A DNA stretch of 64,000 nt from Citrobacter amalonaticus. Its GTDB lineage: Bacteria > Pseudomonadota > Gammaproteobacteria > Enterobacterales > Enterobacteriaceae. Location: positions 991,458 through 1,055,457 of the forward strand of contig NZ_PQMB01000003.1 in the NCBI RefSeq assembly GCF_002918555.1, in the 5' to 3' direction. Below the pieces are notes generated by a model, which searched no databases, had not been told where the DNA came from, and worked only from the letters and a program-made list of their open reading frames with translations. A program made the position numbers and the translations under genes. Below are positions 1,906 to 34,603 of the stretch, piece after piece. Each line of letters opens with the position of its first letter. Positions within the stretch are counted from its first letter, which is position 1.

Positions 1906-4326
1906 ATGTCCGGCTGGCCACGAATTTACTACAAATTACTGAATTTACCATTAAGCGTACTGGTAAAAAGCAAGTCCATTCCGGCGGATCCCGCTCCGGA
2001 ATTAGGACTCGATACCTCTCGTCCAATTATGTACGTTTTACCGTACAACTCGAAAGCGGACTTGCTAACGCTGCGCGCCCAATGTCTGGCGCATGACCTT
2101 CCGGATCCCCTGGAACCACTGGAGATCGACGGCACGCTGCTGCCGCGCCATATCTTCATTCATGGGGGTCCGCGTGTCTTTACCTGGTACACGCCAAAAG
2201 AAGAGTCCATTAAGTTATTCCACAACTATCTCGACCTGCATCGCAGCAATCCGGACCTGGATGTGCAAATGGTGCCGGTATCGGTGATGTTTGGTCGCGC
2301 GCCCGGGCGCGAAAAAGGCGAGGTCAACCCTCCGCTGCGGATGCTGAATGGCATTCAGAAATTCTTTGCGGTTTCCTGGCTGGGTCGCGACAGTTTTGTG
2401 CGCTTCTCTCCCTCCGTTTCTCTGCGCCGGATGGCCGACGAACACGGAACGGATAAAACCATTGCGCAAAAACTGGCCCGCGTGGCGCGTATGCATTTCG
2501 CCCGCCAGCGTCTGGCGGCGGTCGGACCGCGCCTGCCTGCCCGTCAGGATCTGTTCAACAAGCTGCTGGCGTCCAAAGCCATTGCTCGTGCGATTGAAGA
2601 CGAAGCGCGCAGCAAGAAAATTTCCCATGAAAAAGCGCAGCAGAACGCGATTGCGCTGATGGAAGAGATTGCCGCCAACTTCTCATACGAGATGATCCGT
2701 CTGACGGACCGTATTCTTGGCTTTACCTGGAACCGGCTGTATCAGGGGATTAACGTCCATAACGCCGAGCGCGTACGCCAGCTGGCGCACGACGGGCATG
2801 AAATCGTCTATGTACCCTGCCACCGCAGTCACATGGACTACCTGCTGCTTTCTTACGTGCTGTATCATCAGGGGCTGGTGCCGCCGCATATTGCTGCGGG
2901 CATTAACCTGAACTTCTGGCCGGCAGGTCCGATATTCCGCCGCCTGGGCGCGTTCTTTATTCGTCGTACCTTCAAGGGCAATAAGCTCTACTCCACCGTT
3001 TTCCGTGAATACCTGGGCGAACTGTTCAGCCGTGGCTATTCAGTGGAATATTTCGTGGAAGGCGGTCGCTCACGTACCGGTCGTTTACTGGATCCGAAAA
3101 CCGGCACTCTCTCGATGACCATTCAGGCGATGCTGCGCGGCGGAACTCGCCCAATCACACTGGTGCCAATTTATATCGGTTACGAGCATGTGATGGAGGT
3201 CGGGACTTACGCCAAAGAGTTGCGTGGCGCGACGAAAGAGAAAGAGAGTCTGCCGCAGATGCTGCGCGGCTTAAGCAAGCTGCGTAATCTGGGTCAGGGC
3301 TACGTTAACTTTGGCGAACCGATGCCGCTGATGACGTATCTGAACCATCATGTCCCGGACTGGCGCGAATCTATCGATCCTATCGAAGCCGTGCGCCCTG
3401 CCTGGCTGACGCCGACGGTTAACGGCATGGCGACTGAGCTGATGGTGCGTATCAACAACGCCGGTGCGGCAAACGCCATGAACCTTTGCTGTACCGCGCT
3501 GCTGGCTTCGCGTCAACGTTCGCTGACCCGCGAGCAGCTGACCGAACAGCTCGACTGCTATCTGAATCTGATGCGCAATGTACCGTACTCCACCGATTCG
3601 ACTGTGCCATCGGTCAGCGCCAGCGATCTTATCGATCACGCGCTGCAGATGAATAAGTTCGAAGTCGAGAAGGACACCATCGGGGATATCATCATTCTGC
3701 CGCGCGAGCAGGCGGTGCTGATGACTTACTACCGTAACAACATCGCACATATGCTGGTGTTGCCGTCGCTGATGGCAGCCATTATTACCCAACATCGCCA
3801 CATCTCTCGTGAGGCGCTCCAGCAGCATGTTGACGTGCTCTATCCGATGCTGAAAGCCGAGCTGTTCCTGCGTTGGGAGCGCAATGACCTCGTCGACGTG
3901 CTTGACGCGCTGGCCAGCGAGATGCAGCGTCAGGGGCTGATTACGTTGCAAAACAACGAGCTGCATATTAACCCCGCACACTCCCGCACGTTGCAACTGC
4001 TGGCGGCTGGCGCGCGTGAAACGCTGCAACGCTATGCCATCACGTTCTGGCTACTGAGTGCGAACCCGTCCATCAATCGTGGCACGCTGGAGAAAGAGAG
4101 TCGTACCGTGGCGCAGCGTCTGTCGGTACTGCACGGCATCAACGCGCCTGAGTTCTTCGACAAAGCGGTATTCAGCTCTCTGGTATTAACTTTGCGCGAT
4201 GAAGGCTACATTAGCGATACTGGCGATGCCGAGCCGGAGCAGACGATGAAGGTATATCAGATGCTGGCGGAGTTGATTACGTCGGATGTACGTCTGACTA
4301 TCGAAAGCGCGACGCAGAGTGAGTAG
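1906..4326 (+). CDS. plsB: Glycerol-3-phosphate acyltransferase PlsB (806 aa)
   Basis: Full-length near-identity to E. coli PlsB ([17 protein letters not shown]...; [10 protein letters not shown] acyltransferase motif). Confidence 0.97.
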
Positions 4327-4430: not shown

Positions 4431-5303
4431 TCATAAGTGCCAGTAGCTCATCGCCAGCCCGATAAACAGCACCAGACCAACGTAGTTGTTGTTCATAAAC
4501 GCTTTAAAGCAGGCCTCGCGATCGCGGTGAACAATCAGTTTCTGCTGGTAGACGAACAATGCGCCAGCTATCAGCACCGCCCAGTAGTATCCCATCCCCA
4601 GCCCGTTGAGCCAGCCAACCAGCGCCATTAATGCCAGCACGCCAACCTGCAAAATACCAATAATCAGTTTGTCGTTCCGACCAAACAGGATCGCGGTCGA
4701 TTTGATACCTATTTTCAGGTCGTCATCCCGATCGACCATCGCATATTGCGTATCGTACGCCACGGCCCAGAGAATATTCGCAAGGAACATCAGCCAGCAG
4801 CTCAGCGGCACAGACTCACTGACCGCCGCAAACGCCATCGGAATCGACCAGCCAAACGCCGCGCCCAGTACAACCTGCGGCAGATGGGTATAGCGCTTCA
4901 TAAACGGATAGACCCACGCCAACCCCAGCGCCGCAATTGACAGCAGAATGGTCATCGTATTCAGAGTCAGCACCAGCAGGAAGGAAAGGACCACCAGCAC
5001 CACAAACAGCGTGCGTGCTTCTTTCTCGGTCACTGCCCCGCTCGGTAGCGGTCGGTTCGCCGTGCGCTTCACGTGACCGTCAAACTTACGGTCAGCATAA
5101 TCGTTGACGACGCATCCGGCAGCACGCATCAACCAGACACCGGCGACAAACACCGCCAGGATCCACAGCTGCGGTACGCCAGGGGTTGCCACCCACAACG
5201 CCCACAGCGTTGGCCAGAGCAGCAGTAAAGCGCCGATTGGCTTATCCGTACGCATTAAGCGGTGAAACGCCAACAGCTTATTCTGCGTCAGACTCCACTC
5301 CAT
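4431..5303 (-). CDS. ubiA: 4-hydroxybenzoate octaprenyltransferase UbiA (290 aa)
   Basis: [37 protein letters not shown]... near-identical to E. coli UbiA. Confidence 0.96.
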
Positions 5304-5316
5304 TTTATTATCCTCT

Positions 5317-5814
5317 TCAGTACAACGGTGATGCAGGCAAAAAGAGTTCAGTAAGCATCAGAGGCTTGCCGCTTAACCGCAAACGGGAACGACGTCCCCA
5401 TAGCGCTGCATCACAACCAATCTCAATAAAATCTCGGGTCAACGTCGATGATGTAAAAAGATAGCGCCCTAACGGGGTTTTCCCCAGATTTTGTAAGGCC
5501 AGTTCAGGGCCGCATAACGTTGATTCAGGCACGACGGTACGCCCGGCAAGCCAGGGTTCGCCATCCGCACAGAGTAAAATTTCACGTAGCCAGTAGCGGG
5601 ACTCTTTTGGCAATAACGCCAGCTCCTCCACCACTTCAGCTTGTTCAACAAAGGCTTCCCGAAGTAGCGTGACAGTCACCCGTTTTCCCTGCTGCTCAAA
5701 ACGTTTCGTCATGGAATCTTCCAGTAACAGCCAGTCAAGCAGGTCGGGATCCAGCGCAGGAATCTCGTCAAAATAGCGCAGCGCACGCAGTTGCGTTAAC
5801 GCGGGGTGTGACAT
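5317..5814 (-). CDS. ubiC: Chorismate pyruvate-lyase UbiC (165 aa)
   Basis: [44 protein letters not shown]... matches E. coli UbiC; 13-bp gap to ubiA (operon). Confidence 0.95.
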
Positions 5815-5924
5815 GCCTTACTCTCCGTTTCATAACGTAAAGGCATTGTATCGCAGAAAAGAGATTACGGGAGATGGAAACATAATTAAGTGATCTGTTG
5901 CGCAACAGAAACTTAACAATTCGC

Positions 5925-5952
5925 ATGGAATGCTAAAAAAAAGGTGCGCCAC
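5925..5952 (-). terminator. Rho-independent terminator of the malK-lamB-malM operon
   Basis: Minus strand GGTGCGTCTCGTGGCGCACC hairpin followed by T8, just downstream of the malM stop. Confidence 0.7.
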
Positions 5953-5994
5953 GAGACGCACCAGTTGTTGCAAATCAGCAATGTGGGGAGAGCG

Positions 5995-6942
5995 TTACCC
6001 CTTGCCTTTTACACTGCTGATAAAAGTGGAACGGGCAGATGTCGATCCCAGACGTTCAGCTTCATCAAGCAGTTTCAGCGCTTTATCGACATCGCCTTTC
6101 GCAACGGCCTCTTTAATCGCGCTGTTAAAATAGCTTTCCGTGTCGTTCAGCATCGGTTCGCTTTTCTTCGCGGGTTGTGGCGCTGGAGCAGCAACTGCTG
6201 CTGCCGGAGCCGCATAGGTCGGGGCAGGCGCGGCGGTATTGCCCACCGTGACAGGACCAGGGCCGGATGAACCAAACAGCGGTCCAACCAGCACGCTGGA
6301 GCTGCTGTTGGTTTTCACTTTCAGCTTCAGCAGACCGTCGGTGGTATGACGGGCGATCGGGTCTGGAATATCCGGAACAGCGTTACCTACGCCCTTGGCA
6401 TAGGCTTTTGCCGGATCAAGCAAGGTTGTGGTCTGCTGGAGATCTTTCTCAGTGGTAAAGACCAAAACATAGAGTTTTTGCTGACCCAGCGCTGGCGTCA
6501 GGCGCATGACGCCTTCCAGACGATCCGCGCTCATCACCCCCGGCTCCTGGTAAGTAAAATAGCTGCCGGGGAAGAACGCCGATGGCGTCATGTTTTGGTC
6601 AAGAATTAATACGTTTGGCGCAAATACGCTGGTTTGTTTATTCACTTCACTGGACAGCGTCAGCGTGAGCTCGCCAATATTCGCCGGTATGCTGTAAGCC
6701 GCTACCGGGCCGGAAATGCCCGCGACGTCAAGGCGCTGACCGCCGGTTGAGAGTTGTGTGGACTGAGTTTTGGACTGGTCGACAGGCGTCCAGGTCAACT
6801 GTTGTAAGGCGGCGCCTGGGATCACCGGCGCAGCACTGGTATTTTGCGGAACATAGTTGACCTCCGCAAGCGTAATACCCGGAGCGCTTGCCCATAATCC
6901 TGCGGATAAACAGAGGGCGACGAGAGTTTTCTTCATTTTCAT
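5995..6942 (-). CDS. malM: Maltose operon periplasmic protein MalM (start at MKMKKTLV; ORF-track start 6951 is an upstream in-frame Met)
   Basis: Strong similarity to E. coli MalM through the C-terminus (...STFISSVKGKG). Confidence 0.93.
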   Translation of the reverse strand: MKMKKTLVALCLSAGLWASAPGITLAEVNYVPQNTSAAPVIPGAALQQLTWTPVDQSKTQSTQLSTGGQRLDVAGISGPVAAYSIPANIGELTLTLSSEVNKQTSVFAPNVLILDQNMTPSAFFPGSYFTYQEPGVMSADRLEGVMRLTPALGQQKLYVLVFTTEKDLQQTTTLLDPAKAYAKGVGNAVPDIPDPIARHTTDGLLKLKVKTNSSSSVLVGPLFGSSGPGPVTVGNTAAPAPTYAAPAAAVAAPAPQPAKKSEPMLNDTESYFNSAIKEAVAKGDVDKALKLLDEAERLGSTSARSTFISSVKGKG

Positions 6943-27179: not shown

Positions 27180-28829
27180 TTATGCACGCCAGGACTTATA
27201 GCGGTTAATCAGACCGTTGGTTGAACTGTCGTGGCTGTCGATCGCTTTGTCGTCACCCAGCTCCGGCAGAATACGGTTTGCCAGCTGTTTACCCAGCTCA
27301 ACGCCCCACTGATCGAAGGTGAAGATATTCAGGATCACACCCTGCGTAAAGATTTTATGCTCATACAGGGCAATCAGCGCGCCCAGGCTGAACGGGGTGA
27401 TTTCACGCAGCAGGATGGAGTTGGTCGGGCGGTTGCCTTCGAACACCTTGAAGGGCACCACGTGGTCCAGGGTTGCCGGATCTTTACCCTGATCGCGGTA
27501 TTCCTGCTCAACCACATCGCGGGATTTACCGAACGCCAGGGCTTCAGTCTGCGCGAAGAAGTTAGACAGCAGCTTCGGATGGTGATCCGACAGCGGATTA
27601 TGGGTGATAGCCGGGGCGATGAAATCGCACGGTACCATTTTGGTGCCCTGGTGAATCAGCTGGTAGAACGCGTGCTGGCCGTTAGTACCCGGCTCACCCC
27701 AGATGATTGGGCCGGTCTGGTAATCCACCGCGTTGCCGTTACGGTCAACGTATTTGCCGTTGGATTCCATATTGCCCTGCTGGAAGTAAGCTGCAAAACG
27801 GTGCATATACTGGTCATACGGCAGAATCGCTTCGGTTTCAGCGCCGAAGAAGTTGTTGTACCAGATACCGATCAGCGCCAGCAGCACCGGCAGGTTTTTC
27901 TCCGGGGCAGTAGTAGAAAAATGCTTATCCATCGCGTGCGCGCCGGACAGCAATTCAACAAAGTTGTCGAAGCCGACGGACAGAATGATGGACAAACCAA
28001 TGGCTGACCACAGGGAATAGCGACCGCCCACCCAGTCCCAGAATTCGAACATGTTGGCAGTATCAATACCGAATTCGCCAACCGCTTTCGCATTGGTGGA
28101 CAGCGCAGCAAAGTGCTTCGCCACGTGTTTTTCATCACCCGCAGTTTTCAGGAACCAGTCGCGCGCGCTGTGGGCGTTGGTCATGGTTTCCTGGGTGGTG
28201 AAGGTTTTGGAGGCCACCAGGAACAGGGTCGTTTCCGGGTTCACTTTCTTCAGCACTTCGGCGATGTGAGTACCATCGACGTTAGAGACAAAGTGCATAT
28301 TCAGGTGGTTTTTATATGGACGCAGCGCTTCGGTCACCATGAACGGGCCGAGGTCAGAGCCGCCGATACCAATGTTGACCACGTCGGTAATCGCCTTACC
28401 GGTATAGCCTTTCCATTGACCAGAGATAATCGCTTCAGAGAAGGCTTTCATCTTCTCCAGCACCGCGTTCACTTCCGGCATGACGTCTTTGCCGTCGACG
28501 ATAATCGGGGTATTGCTACGGTTACGCAGCGCAACGTGCAGGACGGCACGGTCTTCGGTACGGTTAATCTTCTCGCCGGAGAACATGGATTTGATGGCGT
28601 CAGCCAGGAAGGTTTCTTTTGCCAGATCCTGCAACTTTGCCAGCGTCTCTTCGGTGATGCGGTTTTTAGAGAAATCGACCAGCATCAGATCGTCGAATGT
28701 GGCGGAAAAATGAGTGAAACGGTCGCTGTCTTTCGCGAAAAGCTCCGCGATAGTAACGTCCTTCATTTCGTCGTAATGTTTTTGTAGTGCCTGCCAGGCA
28801 GATGTCTGCGTCGGATTGATGTTTTTCAT
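27180..28829 (-). CDS. pgi: Glucose-6-phosphate isomerase Pgi (549 aa; true start MKNINPTQT; the ORF-track 648-aa N-terminal extension is rejected)
   Basis: Near-identity to E. coli Pgi; the upstream in-frame extension runs through an ERIC repeat. Confidence 0.96.
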
Positions 28830-28950
28830 TAGCAATACTCTTCTGATTTGAGAATTGTGACTGAGATCGATTGTAACGCCAGCCACAGAAAAATGTGATT
28901 GTTTTAATGCCGTTGCCCCAGGCACTGTCGAATGGGGATAAAAAGTATAT

Positions 28951-29075
28951 ACCCTAAATAATTCGAGGTGCAGGAAGGCGGCAAGTGAGTGAGTCCCCGG
29001 GAGCATAGATAACGATGTAACCGGAGTGAGTTGAACGTAGCCAACACGCCCGCAACCCGAAGTATGACGGGTATC
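28951..29075. repeat. ERIC element copy 3 in the pgi-lysC divergent intergenic region
   Basis: ACCCTAAATAATTCGAGGTGCAGGAAGGCGGCAAGTGAGTGAGTCCCCGGGAGC...CCGAAGTATGACGGGTAT. Confidence 0.8.
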
Positions 29076-29136
29076 GCTGTTATAAGCCCTGTTTCTGAGT
29101 CTAAACGCAGCATAAAAAATCCGCATAATCCCGGCG

Positions 29137-29166
29137 TTGACAGTCCAGCCCGCACATTTTATTTAT
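29137..29166 (+). promoter_or_regulatory. Candidate sigma70 promoter for lysC (TTGACA-17-TATTTA), giving an ~85-nt leader
   Basis: Consensus -35 and near-consensus -10 with 17-bp spacer, seen directly. Confidence 0.45.
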
Positions 29167-29255
29167 AAATACGGAATTTGCTTTTGCGCCTGCACCGGTG
29201 TCAGTACTGCCTTTGTGCCATGGTCGCTTTTTTCACTCCCTGACACGAGGTAGTC

Positions 29256-30605
29256 ATGACCGATATTGTTGTCTCCAAATTTGGCGGTACCAGCGTGGCT
29301 GATTTTGACGCCATGAACCGCAGCGCCGACGTGGTGCTTTCCGATGCAAACGTCCGTTTAGTTGTCCTTTCGGCATCTGCCGGGATTACCAATCTGCTGG
29401 TTGCGCTGGCGGAAGGCCTGGAAGCAGCCGCACGTTTCGAAAAGCTCGACGCTATCCGTAAAATTCAGTTCGACATCCTGGAGCGTCTGCGCTATCCGAA
29501 CGTTATTCGCGAGGAGATCGAGCGCCTGCTGGATAACATCACCACGCTTGCCGAAGCCGCTTCTCTGGCCACCTCCACCGCCCTGACCGACGAGCTGGTC
29601 AGCCACGGCGAACTGATGTCGACCCTGCTGTTTGTGGAGATCCTGCGTGAACGTAACGTGCAGGCGCAGTGGTTTGATGTGCGTAAAGTGATGCGTACCA
29701 ACGATCGTTTTGGCCGTGCAGAACCCGATGTTGTCGCGCTCTCTGAACTGGCGACGCTGCAACTGGCACCGCGGCTGGAAGAAGGCCTGGTGATTACTCA
29801 GGGCTTTATCGGCAGCGAAAGCAAAGGCCGCACCACCACTCTGGGACGCGGCGGGAGCGATTACACGGCCGCTCTGCTGGCAGAAGCCCTGCACGCGACG
29901 CGAGTTGATATCTGGACGGACGTGCCGGGCATCTATACCACCGATCCTCGCGTGGTCCCTGCGGCACAACGCATCGATGAGATTGCCTTTGAAGAGGCGG
30001 CGGAGATGGCTACTTTTGGCGCCAAGGTTCTGCATCCGGCAACCCTGTTACCCGCCGTGCGTAGCGATATTCCGGTCTTCGTCGGCTCCAGCAAAGATCC
30101 GAAAGCCGGTGGCACGCTGGTGTGCAACAAAACGAACAATCCGCCGCTGTTCCGCGCGCTGGCGCTGCGTCGTAAACAGACATTGTTAACCCTGCACAGC
30201 CTGAATATGCTGCACTCTCGCGGTTTTCTCGCCGAAGTGTTCGGCATCCTGGCGCGGCATAATATCTCGGTGGATTTGATCACCACTTCGGAAGTCAGCG
30301 TGGCCTTAACCCTGGATACCACGGGGTCGACCTCAACAGGCGATACGTTGCTGACGCAGTCTCTGTTGATGGAGCTGTCTGTATTGTGTCGCGTTGAGGT
30401 GGAAGAGGGTCTGGCATTGGTTGCGCTAATTGGCAACGATCTGTCCAAAGCCTGCGGCGTGGGTAAAGAGGTGTTCGGCGTTCTGGAACCGTTCAACATC
30501 CGCATGATTTGCTACGGAGCTTCCAGCCACAACCTCTGTTTCCTGGTCCCTGGCACCGAAGCTGAGCAGGTCGTACAGAAGCTGCACCATAATCTGTTTG
30601 AGTGA
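29256..30605 (+). CDS. lysC: Lysine-sensitive aspartokinase III LysC (449 aa)
   Basis: MTDIVVSKFGGTSVADFDAMNRSADVVLSDANVRLVVLSASAGITNLLV... matches E. coli LysC. Confidence 0.96.
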   Translation: MTDIVVSKFGGTSVADFDAMNRSADVVLSDANVRLVVLSASAGITNLLVALAEGLEAAARFEKLDAIRKIQFDILERLRYPNVIREEIERLLDNITTLAEAASLATSTALTDELVSHGELMSTLLFVEILRERNVQAQWFDVRKVMRTNDRFGRAEPDVVALSELATLQLAPRLEEGLVITQGFIGSESKGRTTTLGRGGSDYTAALLAEALHATRVDIWTDVPGIYTTDPRVVPAAQRIDEIAFEEAAEMATFGAKVLHPATLLPAVRSDIPVFVGSSKDPKAGGTLVCNKTNNPPLFRALALRRKQTLLTLHSLNMLHSRGFLAEVFGILARHNISVDLITTSEVSVALTLDTTGSTSTGDTLLTQSLLMELSVLCRVEVEEGLALVALIGNDLSKACGVGKEVFGVLEPFNIRMICYGASSHNLCFLVPGTEAEQVVQKLHHNLFE

Positions 30606-30641: not shown

Positions 30642-31436
30642 CTAGAGTGAGTTTCCCATTACCGTCTGATACAGCAGTCTGTCCAGTTCCCTGACATCTC
30701 CTTCCCGACTGTCCGGAATAACCGGCGGGATCTCGCCTCGCGCCAGTTCAGCACGGATAAACGCGTGCAGCAGTGGGCGACGTGGACCGTATTCCGCTTC
30801 TCCCGTACGTTGTTTGCGTTCAAGCAGTTCGTCTATCTCCTGACGTAGCGCGGCATCCAGTTCGCTTCCCGCCAACAGTGCGGCAAAACGCACAGGCGGC
30901 ACGCCCTTCCCTGCTTCAACCCAGCGTACGGCCAGTAACGGGCGCAGGACATAGAAGTATTTTTTTAACCGTACATCCTCACCCTGCAGATAACCGCGGA
31001 AGTTTTTTCGCGCCATCGAGTAGTAGTGCCAACGGGCGCGAAGTGGCGAAAACCATTTTGGTACGAGCGCCTTAAGCGCGGATACCGTTGCCTCATCCTG
31101 ATGATAAACCACCGGTGAACCCAGCCATTCTATCAGCGTGGGGTTAGCCCCCTTCAGTAAACCAAGTGCTTTACGCCACTCCCAGCCGCAGACGTCCAGT
31201 TCATCGTCTATTGGCAGCTCGATTACATCGCGCGGGGCTTCTACCCGCAGGTACCACTCCGGCTGATGGACATATAAAAACCGCACATCGTAATCGCTGT
31301 CTGGAGAAGCGAATCCCCAACCGCGGCTGCCGGATTCGCAGGCATACAGCACCCGAACGCCATAGCGCTGCTCCACCTCTTTCAGCTGCCACGCAACCTG
31401 TTCGCGCATGGCGGCAGTAACACCGTTATTGCTCAT
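30642..31436 (-). CDS. Pol-beta-superfamily nucleotidyltransferase (264 aa), distal gene of the RtcR-associated sigma54 operon
   Basis: GS-x10-DYD motif (ESGSRGWGFASPDSDYDVRF) typical of minimal nucleotidyltransferases; ATGA start/stop overlap with the upstream SPFH gene. Confidence 0.75.
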   Translation of the reverse strand: MSNNGVTAAMREQVAWQLKEVEQRYGVRVLYACESGSRGWGFASPDSDYDVRFLYVHQPEWYLRVEAPRDVIELPIDDELDVCGWEWRKALGLLKGANPTLIEWLGSPVVYHQDEATVSALKALVPKWFSPLRARWHYYSMARKNFRGYLQGEDVRLKKYFYVLRPLLAVRWVEAGKGVPPVRFAALLAGSELDAALRQEIDELLERKQRTGEAEYGPRRPLLHAFIRAELARGEIPPVIPDSREGDVRELDRLLYQTVMGNSL

Positions 31437-32569
31437 CGTTCTGCTCCTTTTATATTCACCAGGCCGTGCAGCACCTGATCCAGACCGCCAAAGACCGAGA
31501 TTTTATCGATACGTTCCGCCACTCTTTCGAGCGTCTCCAGCTCTTTTAAACGCAGCGCCACCGGGTTGTTTTCCATCACTTTCGCGGTGTTCAACAACGA
31601 GCGGGTCGCGGCGGTTTCTTCACGTCGACGAATCACGTTAGCCTGTGCTGACTTTTCCGCTTCCACCAGGCGGGAGAGAATAGCCTTCATATCGCCAGGC
31701 AGGACAATATCCTTCACACCAGGTGAGGCGACTTCAATGCCAAACGGCGCCATACGGGCTTTTACCTGCGCGCTGACGACTTCGTCGATGATCTGCTTAT
31801 TTTCCAGCAGTTCATCAAGGGTGCGCGTTCCCACCGCTTCTCGCAGCGCAAACTGTAACTCCCGGTACAGGTGGTCCAGCGGTTTCGTAAGCCGGGAAAA
31901 TGCCAGCAACACGTCGCTAAAGCGCCAGTTTGCCGCCAGATTCAGGCGCAGATTGACCTTATCTTTGGTCAGGATCTCCTGTCCACCGACCTCCAGCACC
32001 TGCAGACGGGTATCCACCACGTCGGCTTCAACCAGATGATTCACCTTCCAGTACGCGGTCAGACCGGGTGTCAGCAACGGCTGTGTCTCACCGTCAATTT
32101 TCAGAACGCCCACGTGCCAGGCCGGAACCTGTACTGTCAGCATCGCTTCACGTCCTTTCACCGCACCATTACGGCGTGGCTGTAACACCGCATTCATGAC
32201 GTCCGCGGGTACCAGAGCCTGGCGTGTATCCATCCGTACCTGTCTCAACGCCTCATCGGCTCGCCAGTACAGGCGGCGCGTTGACGGCGGCAGGATCTCC
32301 TGCAAAATGTCGTTCATATACAGCGCACCTGCCTCTGTGTCACTTAAATCCACCGCCAGGCAGTAGCGCTCAACCCAGCCGGGCTGGAAGCGACGCAGAT
32401 ACTCCGCCAGCGTTTCCTGCACTTCGCTGCCGTCCAGATTAATGACAAGTACCTCTGGCGTACTGAACCACGGCAGACGATGTTCACCCGCTTCCAGCAC
32501 CTGGTAGTAATCGCCCTCACGGGACAAAAGCCCTAACTGACCTTTTCGTATTGTGATTTTCTTAGCCAT
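31433..32569 (-). CDS. Cytoplasmic SPFH/band-7 (stomatin/flotillin-like) domain protein (378 aa)
   Basis: C-terminal half has SPFH-like coiled-coil segments (…IEVASPGVKDIVLPGDMKAILSRLVEAEKSAQANVIRRREETAA…); no N-terminal TM segment. Confidence 0.78.
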   Translation of the reverse strand: MAKKITIRKGQLGLLSREGDYYQVLEAGEHRLPWFSTPEVLVINLDGSEVQETLAEYLRRFQPGWVERYCLAVDLSDTEAGALYMNDILQEILPPSTRRLYWRADEALRQVRMDTRQALVPADVMNAVLQPRRNGAVKGREAMLTVQVPAWHVGVLKIDGETQPLLTPGLTAYWKVNHLVEADVVDTRLQVLEVGGQEILTKDKVNLRLNLAANWRFSDVLLAFSRLTKPLDHLYRELQFALREAVGTRTLDELLENKQIIDEVVSAQVKARMAPFGIEVASPGVKDIVLPGDMKAILSRLVEAEKSAQANVIRRREETAATRSLLNTAKVMENNPVALRLKELETLERVAERIDKISVFGGLDQVLHGLVNIKGAER

Positions 32570-32858
32570 TTCTCTGTTCCTTATAAAATCAGGTGCGGGT
32601 GCAGGGGCGAAGCCACAGGGGAATTCCCTTTTGCCTGTGGCGCGGCGCCATTACCGGCAACCTGCTGTTGGGGATTGCTAACCGCTCAACGCCCCGTTTC
32701 TATTTCTGTGATTAACAACCAGTTTCATTGGGAAAATGAATCGGGAATCGAACCCATTGTTCAGGTGTCATCTGCTGACGGAACACTCCGGGAAAACAGC
32801 CTCTGCCGTTCCTGACGTGCCGGCGGGGTTTAACCCCCTGCGTTTTCAGCGTTATTGA
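32570..32858 (-). ncRNA. ~290-nt leader of the SPFH-NTase operon carrying a tRNA T-arm-like motif (GGGTTCGATTCCC at 32744-32756 on the minus strand) and stem-loops (GGGG-ttaaa-CCCC; GCCACAGG...CCTGTGGC); possible structured cis-RNA or Y-RNA-like element
   Basis: Motif seen directly; by analogy to the tRNA-like YrlA Y RNA in the Salmonella RtcR-controlled rsr-yrlBA-rtcBA operon (inference); no full cloverleaf identified. Confidence 0.25.
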
Positions 32859-32866
32859 CCCATGTG

Positions 32867-33019: not shown

Positions 33020-34603
33020 ATGATGAAAAAGCGGCGGGTAGTGATTGGTGTCCTGGGCACGGTGTTGGATAAACGCGGCAAGCGGGCAAACCGGTTTAAG
33101 AAATGGCGGCCCACGGTCGGCTTGTGCCAGCAGGCTGATTTCCCGATCGACAGGCTGGAACTGCTCCACCAGCCGCGAGATGAGAGCATGGCGCAACGGT
33201 TGATTGAAGATATCGCCCAGCTTTCACCCCATACCGACGTCCGCGCACAGGCGATCACAATTAACGATCCGTGGGATTTTGAGGAGGTCTACGCTGCGTT
33301 TCTCGACTTTGCCACACATTATGAATTTGATACGCAAAACGAAGAGTATCTGGTGCACATCACCACCGGCACCCACGTGGCGCAGATCTGCTGGTTTCTG
33401 CTAACGGAAGCCCGCTACCTGCCTGCCAGCCTGTTGCAAACCAGTCCGGCAACGAAAGGTTCATCAGACGAAGCTATCGCCGCTGGTGTCTGTTCGGTGA
33501 TCGATCTTGATTTAAGCCGCTATGCCACGCTCACCAGTCGCTTTCAGCGCGAGCAACAGCAGTCGGTCTCATTCCTGAAAGCCGGTATTGAAACGCGCAA
33601 TGTGACGTTCAACAAACTTATCGACCGAATTGAGCGGGTTGCGCTACGTTCAACAGATCCGATTCTGCTTACCGGCCCCACCGGTGCGGGTAAATCCTTT
33701 CTTGCAAAACGTATTTTTCAGCTTCGCCAGTCGCGTCATCTGGTGGCAGGAAAGCTGGTGGCAATAAACTGCGCCACCCTGCGCGGCGACAATGCGATGT
33801 CTACGCTGTTCGGTCACGTGAAAGGCGCTTTTACCGGGGCGCTGGCTCCACGTACCGGGCTATTACGTGAGGCCGATGGCGGCGTGCTGTTTCTCGATGA
33901 AATCGCCGAATTGGGGCTGGATGAACAGGCCATGCTGCTGAAAGCGATTGAAGAGAAAACGTTTTTTCCATTTGGCTCGGATACAGAGGTCCATAGCGAC
34001 TTTCAGCTGATTGTCGGAACCCATCGCGATATGCCGCAGTGGGTGGCGGAAGGCCGCTTTCGCGAAGATCTCTACGCGCGTATCAATATGTGGCGTTTCG
34101 CCCTGCCTGGTCTGGCGCAGCGGCGCGAAGATATCGCCCCGAACGTCGAGTATGAGCTTCAGCGTTTTTCCCGCAGTAAACAGATGCAGATCCGCTTTGA
34201 TAAAGAGGCCCGCGAGCGCTATCTGGCATTTGCCTGCTCGACGCAGGCACAGTGGCGCGGCAACTTTCGCGAGCTGAGCTCTTCCGTTGCGCGCATGGCG
34301 ACGCTTGCCGAACAGGGACGTATTACGTTAGTCCTTGCTGAAGAAGAGATTGCGCTACTGCAAGAGAACTGGCAAAGCACTGCCTCACTACCTGAGCTGG
34401 AGGGGGAGATCGACCTTTTCGACAGGCGACAGCTGGAAACGGTGCTGGAGGTATGCCGCCGCTGCGCATCGTTGTCTGAAGCCGGACGAGAACTCTTCGC
34501 CGTCTCCCGACAGAAAAAAGCCAATCCCAACGATGCCGACCGCCTGCGCAAGTACCTGGCCCGCTTTGGGCTGAGCTGGGAGAGCATCCGCTGCGGATCA
34601 TGA
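33020..34603 (+). CDS. rtcR: RtcR-family sigma54-dependent transcriptional activator (CARF-like N-domain + AAA+ sigma54-interaction domain + C-terminal HTH), 527 aa
   Basis: Walker A LLTGPTGAGKSFLAKRI, GAFTGA motif (HVKGAFTGALAPRTG), N-terminus MMKKRRVVIGVLGTVLDKRG... resembling E. coli RtcR, C-terminal HTH. Confidence 0.85.
   Translation: MMKKRRVVIGVLGTVLDKRGKRANRFKKWRPTVGLCQQADFPIDRLELLHQPRDESMAQRLIEDIAQLSPHTDVRAQAITINDPWDFEEVYAAFLDFATHYEFDTQNEEYLVHITTGTHVAQICWFLLTEARYLPASLLQTSPATKGSSDEAIAAGVCSVIDLDLSRYATLTSRFQREQQQSVSFLKAGIETRNVTFNKLIDRIERVALRSTDPILLTGPTGAGKSFLAKRIFQLRQSRHLVAGKLVAINCATLRGDNAMSTLFGHVKGAFTGALAPRTGLLREADGGVLFLDEIAELGLDEQAMLLKAIEEKTFFPFGSDTEVHSDFQLIVGTHRDMPQWVAEGRFREDLYARINMWRFALPGLAQRREDIAPNVEYELQRFSRSKQMQIRFDKEARERYLAFACSTQAQWRGNFRELSSSVARMATLAEQGRITLVLAEEEIALLQENWQSTASLPELEGEIDLFDRRQLETVLEVCRRCASLSEAGRELFAVSRQKKANPNDADRLRKYLARFGLSWESIRCGS

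Follow-up and report, generated by a model that had tools for sequence, protein, structure and literature searches.

The RNA studied here is the leader of a short operon in Citrobacter amalonaticus, on the minus strand of a 64,000-nucleotide stretch of contig NZ_PQMB01000003.1 (positions 991,458–1,055,457, hereafter the window), where it lies between a predicted sigma54 promoter and a gene for an SPFH/Band-7 protein, next to the divergent gene of the regulator RtcR. Two kinds of tRNA-like RNA have been described or predicted for such surroundings. YrlA (Rfam RF02553; Chen et al., 2014) is a tRNA-like Y RNA transcribed from the RtcR-controlled RNA-repair operon of Salmonella, and its order of T arm, closed acceptor-like stem (AS) and D-type element is that of a permuted tRNA. 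RNase P cuts the Mycobacterium smegmatis YrlA in the loop of the AS, which has 7 bp there, and cleavage was seen only with a 7-bp AS (Chen et al., 2014). The second is the b7a-tRNA, the ‘Band-7-associated tRNA’ of Burroughs & Aravind (2016), which, in the account given by Wang et al. (bioRxiv 10.1101/312249), is predicted and unvalidated, and sometimes interchanged with YrlA; I found no later paper on it. In Anabaena, a stress-induced tRNA array (L-array), rtcB and a slipin gene are under one repressor, TrcR (Santamaria-Gomez, 2021; Commun Biol 2023, PMC10272220), and these operonic tRNAs have been proposed to act as sponges for toxin RNases. RtcR itself is activated by tRNA fragments with cyclic-phosphate ends. 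The original prediction for this locus, which proposed a tRNA-like leader in front of the SPFH gene, drew on the literature on YrlA in the Salmonella RtcR operon and on RtcR activation, and both points are as it stated them.

The core of the leader (32757–32714, minus strand, as for all leader features below) is very probably a degenerate, circularly permuted mini-tRNA, made of a T arm, a closed acceptor-like hairpin and a GG-containing strand. It is set within a conserved multi-domain leader predicted to be transcribed under sigma54 and RtcR, and very probably descends from the tRNAs, or tRNA-like genes, found ahead of SPFH genes in other Proteobacteria. Judged by sequence and context, it appears to be a reduced, permuted variant of the b7a-tRNA; the predicted kind itself is already published. 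Both lie beside a Band-7/SPFH gene, in an operon for RtcB/RlaP RNA repair, and are tRNA-derived, the window element lying directly upstream of the SPFH and RlaP genes under RtcR, and the b7a-tRNA has been proposed as the RNA cofactor of an SPFH scaffold. However, the b7a-tRNA is described as ‘strongly resembling an authentic tRNA’, which fits the cloverleaf copies of non-enteric homologous loci (see below) but not the window, where only the T arm and the closed hairpin are present.

With YrlA, the window element shares an RtcR-controlled RNA-repair operon, the order of T arm and closed acceptor-like stem (followed here by a D-loop-like strand), and a canonical T-loop. It differs in that it has neither a nearby Ro60/Rsr gene nor a D stem-loop, and its ends do not form a long Ro-binding stem. 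Moreover, YrlA lies between genes, whereas the window element is at the 5′ end of an mRNA. The Rsr-binding motif GNCGAAN0-1G was not found in the window leader, and the YrlA covariance model, whose gathering score is 69 bits, gave no match at E ≤ 10 on the 321-nt leader. The proposed analogy with YrlA holds for the order of T arm and closed ‘acceptor’ hairpin, and fails for membership of the Rfam family. I have filed the element as a reduced, permuted b7a-tRNA variant because its genomic context agrees with that class, while a cloverleaf, a YrlA score, an Rsr gene and the GNCGAA motif are all lacking.

The match to the tRNA T-loop that had been noticed on the minus strand is present as described (AUGGGUUCGAUUCCCGA at 32757–32741, with the 11-mer GGTTCGATTCC at 32754–32744). 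It is the sole match in the 64-kb window, where 0.07 are expected, and at least one match occurs in 5 of 100 shuffled sequences; a single match is for this reason not significant alone. Homologous loci were gathered by scanning one genome per species, yielding 80 loci with SPFH homologues of 46–90% identity, which span Enterobacteriaceae, Morganellaceae, Orbaceae, Neisseriaceae and many Betaproteobacteria. Of the 80, 77 have GGTTCRANTCC at the equivalent position upstream of the SPFH gene. Among the three exceptions, the sequence of one (L078) ends 48 nt upstream of the match, another (L065) has only 524 nt of upstream sequence, and the third (L027) carries a different hairpin. This last locus, from Providencia sp. 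SKLX146130, is the only intact leader without the T-loop consensus, in place of which it has the hairpin UGUUC-CUUCCAA-GAACA, ∼190–170 nt upstream of the SPFH start (about 3810–3830 in that locus).

In a set of 47 loci (34 distinct sequences), the 5-bp T stem is paired in 88% of cells and shows 29 double-change cells, against 9.7 ± 2.5 in shuffled alignments, none of 500 of which reaches this value; in controls with the partner strand slid by 1–3 columns, 19–66% of cells are paired. GGUUCGA and C61 are invariant in 46 of these 47 loci, in flanks that diverge to about 56% column identity. In the window, the T arm (32757–32741) has the stem AUGGG/CCCGA, which is effectively 3–4 bp long, and the 7-nt T-loop UUCGAUU closed by G32753–C32745, with U54 at 32752 and U60 at 32746, following at the sequence level the pattern U54-U55-C56-R57-A58. 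The outer two stem pairs are mostly unpaired in the window's subgroup, and mismatched in the window itself. Because the motif occurs in 77 of 80 loci with covariation of its stem, it is a selected tRNA T arm and not a chance 11-mer; the original prediction had named its absence from orthologous leaders as the sign of a coincidence, and the reverse is observed.

Directly 3′ of the T arm is the acceptor-like closed hairpin (AS, 32740–32724), in which UUCAUU and AAUGAA enclose the loop UUCCC. Across the 15 leaders of the window-type subgroup, to which E. coli can be added, this hairpin is paired in 91% of cells, with compensations between U-A and C-G at two pairs. An alternative pairing of UUCAUU with an upstream strand (AGAUGA) was also considered, and rejected as no better than shuffles in the same subgroup. 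After the AS comes the ACUGGUUGU strand (ACUGGUUGUU, 32723–32714), a single-stranded, D-loop-like and GG-containing segment whose UGGUUGU columns are invariant in 15/15 window-type leaders. It alone takes the place of the D stem-loop, and it probably has a tertiary role. A weak closing helix around the T and AS elements, between GAUGACA (32771–32765) and UGUUAAUC, is possible, with only 69.5% of cells paired; this strand would supply its 3′ side.

ARAGORN reported no tRNA in the window, and the Rfam tRNA model had no match at E ≤ 10 on the 321-nt leader. Rfam was scanned at E ≤ 10 over 6 kb and over 321 nt, and with gathering thresholds over the 64 kb; this returned only a trivial 13-nt T-arm match to a tmRNA model and noise. 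The acceptor, D, anticodon and T arms by which tRNA finders recognize a tRNA gene are not recovered together in the window element, and a b7a-type cloverleaf is obtained only in non-enteric homologous loci. All detectors miss the element because the outer T-stem pairs are mismatched, the D stem is absent and the segment is thermodynamically weak.

The homologous loci form a series that runs from tRNA arrays to the permuted element. In non-enteric RtcR loci the promoter is 500–600 nt upstream of the SPFH gene, and the leader holds two tRNA-like units. Unit 1 is a mini-tRNA, consisting of a 7-bp acceptor stem, a short linker or hairpin, and a T arm, often with an encoded NCCA (for example GGCGAUG ... 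CAUCGCC-A-CCA in L049). Unit 2 is a full cloverleaf called by both ARAGORN and the Rfam tRNA model (41–68 bits) in Neisseria, Gilliamella, Accumulibacter and Burkholderiales, and its anticodon is not conserved (CAU, AAU, AUU, CAG, AUC and UUA are all found). The YrlA model gives sub-threshold matches in two of the relatives (32.7 bits in L052 and 27.4 bits in L039), and these run from the unit-1 T arm to the unit-2 D arm. In RtcR-less loci of Burkholderiales and other metagenome-assembled genomes (MAGs), the SPFH gene is at the end of, or within, an array of 8–25 tRNA genes (L050, L063, L064, L066, L068, L070, L074, L077 and L080, upstream of ∼4001; in L077 also 5175–6468), and in some array or MAG loci RtcB is encoded upstream (L050, L056, L058). 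The last two units of the array, one tRNA-Met(CAU)-like with its CCA encoded and one tRNA-like with an odd anticodon, have the same acceptor sequences (GGCGAG...CUCGCC-ACCA, then UGGAUAGCUCA).

Enterobacterales retained the first unit only. Some have it in unpermuted form, as in the L006 type, with the acceptor 5′ strand UGCGAA, a stemless D-loop of the GGUUA type, then the T arm, UUCGC as the acceptor 3′ strand, and ACC. Of 31 loci, 18 have the acceptor helix at a fixed geometry, in about ten sequence versions (Fisher combined p ∼1e-7, calculated on loci that are non-independent). In L012 (3764–3862) and in Lonsdalea (L019 and L020, about 3745–3830) the acceptor 3′ strand has complements both upstream and downstream, and by their sequence these leaders seem to bridge the unpermuted mini-tRNA and the permuted form with its closed hairpin; another possibility is a conformational switch between the two pairings. 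The window shares the 5′ domain in front of the T arm with Accumulibacter, Xenorhabdus and Hafnia. A remnant of a genomic-island att site was rejected as the source of the motif, which keeps a fixed place between promoter and SPFH gene in many genomic contexts, and so was a phage origin, for which there was just one weak match to a viral contig.

This series also allows comparison with other tRNA-derived systems. The unpermuted relatives (L006 type, L049, L042) combine an acceptor stem and a stemless, GG-containing D-loop with a T arm plus encoded (N)CCA, that is, the top half of a tRNA without the anticodon arm, as in the tRNA minihelix and the tRNA-like domain of tmRNA. In contrast to these, there is no mRNA-like module and no G3-U70 alanine identity here, and in the window the acceptor is closed by a loop, so that there is no free CCA end. 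The Anabaena L-arrays similarly bring together tRNA genes, RtcB and a slipin/SPFH protein in one translational-stress module, and the Burkholderiales MAG homologues of the SPFH gene lie within arrays. However, the L-array tRNAs are full-length, apparently decodable and under a repressor, whereas the window has a single vestigial element under RtcR and sigma54.

Beyond the tRNA-like core, which is what the original prediction had singled out, the entire leader is a multi-domain conserved RNA. The minimum free energy (MFE) of the whole window leader is no better than that of shuffled sequences (z +0.33), so the evidence had to come from covariation. A model of 61 pairs was tested on 25 Enterobacterales leaders (RNAalifold and pair counts): the share of paired cells is 87.1%, compared with 78.8 ± 0.5 for shuffles, and there are 135 double-change cells, compared with 43 ± 6, while slid controls reach 38–48%. 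Among homologous leaders, the T stem, this whole-leader model and both stem-loops named in the original prediction thus all covary.

The 5′ end forms a three-way junction (32850–32774) whose helices P1, PB and PC each have compensatory pairs in the 25 leaders. P1 joins GCUGA (32850–32846) to UCAGC (32778–32774) and is 96% paired. PB (32841–32823, 95% paired) is the hairpin GCAGGGG-loop-CCCCGC, and contains the first of the two previously noted stem-loops, GGGG-UUAAA-CCCC, which is present at 32838–32825 with compensatory changes. PC (32821–32782, 81% paired) is a long imperfect hairpin. The MFE structure of this domain in isolation agrees with this fold (z −1.84). The junction's covariance model (R1) matches RtcR loci of E. 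coli IAI39 (74 bits), Xenorhabdus (44–59 bits), Hafnia (53 bits) and Accumulibacter (37–38 bits, E ∼1e-7), and found no match in the tRNA-array loci. The reverse complement of PB was also picked up in a plus-strand terminator scan (GGGGTTTAACCCC with a T-rich tail, 32825–32837); no plus-strand gene ends there.

On the 3′ side of the core, hairpin G (32695–32670) has a GGGG...CCCC stem and a conserved loop (GYnGUYAGC), with the compensatory stems GGAGC/GCUCC and GCCGUC/GAUGGC in relatives. It is paired in 61% of cells on the MAFFT alignment, owing to misalignment, and the MFE structure reproduces it. The 3′ domain (32662–32591) is a long irregular hairpin, with the outer helix GG.UGC.GGU/ACC.GCA.CC, conserved internal loops (GUAAnGnnGCCG and CUUCGCnCCUGC), and an inner helix between GCCACAGG (32641–32634) and CCUGUGGC (32619–32612). 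This inner helix is the second previously noted stem-loop: it is real, with compensatory changes, although its spacer is 14 nt and not 15, and the description of it as next to the ribosome-binding site was loose, as its 3′ arm ends 30 nt before the Shine-Dalgarno sequence. The 3′-domain helices are 94–98% paired, with two-sided changes at 16 of 20 pairs, and the isolated domain has the same fold as its MFE structure (z −1.98). A competing RNAalifold helix, GGAACG/CGUUCC, was set aside; its columns are nearly invariant, and the outer pairs of the long-hairpin model covary. The 3′ region as a whole (the hairpin, GCAGUAC, hairpin G and GGCRAA...UUCCCC) can be recognized by eye in SPFH loci of every type.

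The leader is bounded upstream by a sigma54 (−24/−12) promoter, read from the sequence as TGGCACGCTTCTGGCA (32886–32871), with the GG/GC spacing of TGGCAC-N5-TTGCW and one mismatch. It adjoins the divergent rtcR, and control by RtcR is predicted. About 50 RtcR-carrying loci have the same element 300–600 nt upstream of the SPFH gene, and it is also found in E. coli IAI39. Transcription is predicted to start near 32860, which would give a leader of ∼291 nt up to the ATG at 32569, close to the ∼290 nt originally proposed. The Shine-Dalgarno sequence AAGGAA (32582–32577) and the SPFH start codon (32569–32567) together occupy 32582–32567. The consensus structure has no conserved pairing over either of them, and the conserved 3′ hairpin stops at 32591, 9 nt upstream. 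No intrinsic terminator is predicted on the transcribed strand of the leader, and no Rfam cis-regulatory family was matched in the 6-kb, 321-nt and 64-kb scans, leaving no expression platform for a riboswitch or attenuator. That the leader sequesters the ribosome-binding site as a switch, or acts by attenuation, is therefore unsupported, since the Shine-Dalgarno sequence is outside every conserved helix and there is no terminator on the transcribed strand. Three small open reading frames (ORFs) of 16–20 codons that start with ATG are present on the minus strand of the leader (32771–32712, 32651–32589 and 32728–32678), none with a Shine-Dalgarno sequence.

As to function, I tentatively favour the reading that the leader RNA is a partner or cofactor of the SPFH scaffold in tRNA repair. 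RtcR-driven sigma54 transcription would produce a leader RNA with a core that mimics the elbow, or top half, of a tRNA. Its first ∼270 nt fold into the 5′ three-way junction, the tRNA top-half mimic, hairpin G and the long 3′ hairpin, as covariation shows. Enzymes acting on tRNA could then recognize the mimic; these would be T-loop modifiers and perhaps RNase P, with a cut in the AS loop (32734–32730) like that known from M. smegmatis YrlA. This RNA, or a 5′ fragment of it, would partner a soluble SPFH scaffold and bring damaged tRNAs to RlaP, and to RtcB where it is present, paralleling Y RNA and Ro60. The steps that go beyond folding, conservation, tRNA ancestry, promoter and operon content I infer. 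A bolder version is possible but doubtful: the whole ∼270-nt leader would be the RNA subunit of an unseen ribonucleoprotein built on a soluble SPFH/Band-7 cage or scaffold (cf. Ro60 and Y RNA), with RNase P splitting the acceptor loop and damaged tRNAs presented to RlaP and RtcB, and the series from array through mini-tRNA and cloverleaf to the T-AS-D order would display the origin of YrlA-type mimics. If true, permuted mimics arise by the fusion of two consecutive tRNAs, the first giving its T arm and 3′ acceptor strand, the second its 5′ acceptor strand and D region.

Several observations weigh against a tRNA-like cofactor. The window has a T stem of only 3–4 bp and an AS helix rich in A-U pairs, and the folding of its tRNA-like segment does not surpass that of shuffles (z +0.37). 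There is neither a D stem-loop nor an anticodon arm, and ARAGORN and the tRNA and YrlA covariance models pass over the element. The AS of the window has 6 bp, against the 7 bp with which alone cleavage by RNase P was seen (Chen et al., 2014). RtcB, the presumed ligase partner, was found neither in the operon nor anywhere in the 64-kb window, and the accessible literature yielded no expression, processing or binding data on a b7a-tRNA-type RNA from any organism. Lastly, it is the 3′ region, and not the tRNA-like part, that appears to be the most universally conserved in SPFH leaders, which would also fit a purely cis-acting 5′ untranslated region (UTR).

A rival explanation that I regard as possible, if unlikely, is that the element acts in cis on processing or stability (‘tRNA punctuation’): a cut by RNase P or RNase Z would free the SPFH-RlaP mRNA, whose 5′ UTR would be the conserved 3′ hairpin, and the upstream RNA would have no role in trans. 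RtcR-less SPFH genes follow or sit inside arrays of 8–25 tRNAs, from which the mRNA must be released by tRNA processing; the 3′ structured region accompanies SPFH in all types of locus; a YrlA is known to be cleaved by RNase P within the AS loop; and the E. coli relatives have a 7-bp AS. However, a cleavage signal would not need the strongly conserved 5′ three-way junction, nor the invariant T-loop and ACUGGUUGU strand once the acceptor is a closed hairpin, and the AS of the window is a base pair short. It is rather improbable that the induced mimic instead serves as a decoy or sponge, competing with tRNAs for the nuclease that triggers RtcR or for another tRNA-binding toxin. The same idea has been put forward for YrlA and for stress-induced operonic tRNAs co-regulated with rtcB, a slipin gene belonging to the same regulon, and the hypervariable anticodons of the cloverleaf copies in relatives are as expected under an arms race or a non-decoding role. 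Against this, the window element lacks an anticodon arm, such that only proteins reading the elbow or top half could be decoyed, and one copy per mRNA makes a poor stoichiometric sponge.

The two remaining rivals deny the element any role as a tRNA mimic. A decaying tRNA pseudogene, a relic without present function, would explain the progressive loss of D and anticodon arms from Betaproteobacteria to Enterobacterales, the degenerate outer T-stem pairs of the window's subgroup and the lost T-loop consensus of the Providencia locus. This explanation is disfavoured and very improbable: the invariance of GGUUCGA..C within diverging flanks, the compensatory changes that maintain the stems, and the position of the element, kept in about 30% of E. 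coli genomes, all argue for selection. That the motif is a chance 11-mer, or that the leader encodes a small peptide such as the 19-codon ORF at 32771–32712, I consider almost certainly wrong. The low expected number of matches does leave the single occurrence without significance, and this ORF spans the motif and is open in several close relatives. However, it lacks a Shine-Dalgarno sequence, its frame is broken in L007 and different in L006-type leaders, and, besides the conservation and stem covariation described above, distant homologues of the element are tRNAs.

The cofactor reading bears on proteins without an established role in RNA metabolism, the SPFH family, and on the function of the tRNA-like RNAs of RtcR operons (YrlA and b7a-tRNA). 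The locus offers a compact, genetically tractable system with one promoter, one structured RNA and two proteins. The leader RNA is routinely missed in annotation, because it is absent from Rfam and invisible to tRNA finders. The comparative series further joins stress-induced tRNA arrays, Band-7-associated tRNA-like RNAs and Y-RNA-type tRNA mimics, which have so far been discussed separately.

The proteins encoded around the leader agree with a role in RNA repair. rtcR (33020–34603, plus strand) encodes a CARF-type N-domain of the RtcR kind and a sigma54 AAA+ activator (Pfam PF06956, 2.9e-81; PF00158, 1.6e-46). It is divergent from the leader, and a divergent RtcR homologue is also found beside the SPFH gene in most loci of the RtcR type. 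The SPFH/Band-7 ‘slipin’ gene (31433–32569, minus strand) encodes 378 amino acids with a match to PF01145 (3.7e-26); the protein is 100% identical to a C. amalonaticus entry, and Citrobacter homologues are labelled ‘slipin family protein’. Unlike this protein, typical slipins do have a transmembrane segment: none is predicted here, the top 19-residue Kyte-Doolittle mean being 0.86. Outside the Band-7 domain, 146 N-terminal residues and a tail of ∼60 residues at the C-terminus are without a Pfam match, and these regions are candidates for an RNA-binding module. The RlaP nucleotidyltransferase gene (30642–31436, minus strand; PF10127, 1.1e-94) follows, its start overlapping the SPFH stop codon (ATGA), and beyond it are lysC and then pgi. 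Members of the RlaP family add 1–2 NMP to the 3′-OH of damaged RNA, and are required to restore over-trimmed tRNA halves (2025 preprint, PMC12776372).

By Pfam, the genes of the operon are those of SPFH and RlaP only, with no Ro/Rsr gene in it, and RtcA was found nowhere in the 64-kb window. C. amalonaticus ku-bf3 (L022; 5134–6360), a sister strain, and most relatives encode RtcB between SPFH and RlaP, and the operons of Betaproteobacteria have RtcA in addition to RtcB. The two-gene form, with SPFH directly followed by RlaP, is shared by the window strain and several Citrobacter, Klebsiella, Mangrovibacter, Brenneria, Lonsdalea and Hafnia. The operon is thus RtcR/SPFH/RlaP, with RtcB lost from the window version.

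Of 5426 complete E. coli genomes, about 1630 (∼30%), including IAI39, CE10, O111:H8 and H19, also carry the module of leader, slipin and nucleotidyltransferase. A megablast search with the leader had no match in E. coli, and the ‘distant’ search mode was required to find the module. It was not found in C43(DE3), a BL21 derivative, nor in the O157:H7 and ST131 strains among the genomes listed. In IAI39 (L081, NC_011750.1, 4618938–4627435) it lies between yjbD and phage-tail genes, and RefSeq annotates nothing in the 529-nt gap that holds the leader. There is no adjacent rtcR, and the sigma54 promoter is intact, which implies that RtcR from the rtcBA locus controls the module in trans. The AS of the E. 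coli relatives has 7 bp, versus 6 bp in the window.

One minor observation concerns the neighbouring lysC (29256–30605, plus strand), which is separated from pgi by an intergenic region at 28830–29255. A lysine riboswitch upstream of lysC was not found at Rfam gathering thresholds over the whole 64-kb window, nor was RF00168 present within the 559 nt of sequence upstream of lysC in C. amalonaticus L022. A permissive Rfam scan of 28750–29300 returned only sub-threshold matches to Ysr49/V_AS5, located on a repeat (...GAAGTATGACGGGTAT) at about 28947–29096, which I take to be ERIC/IRU-like. RF00168 is found beside lysC in Enterobacter (L006) and in K. oxytoca (L005).

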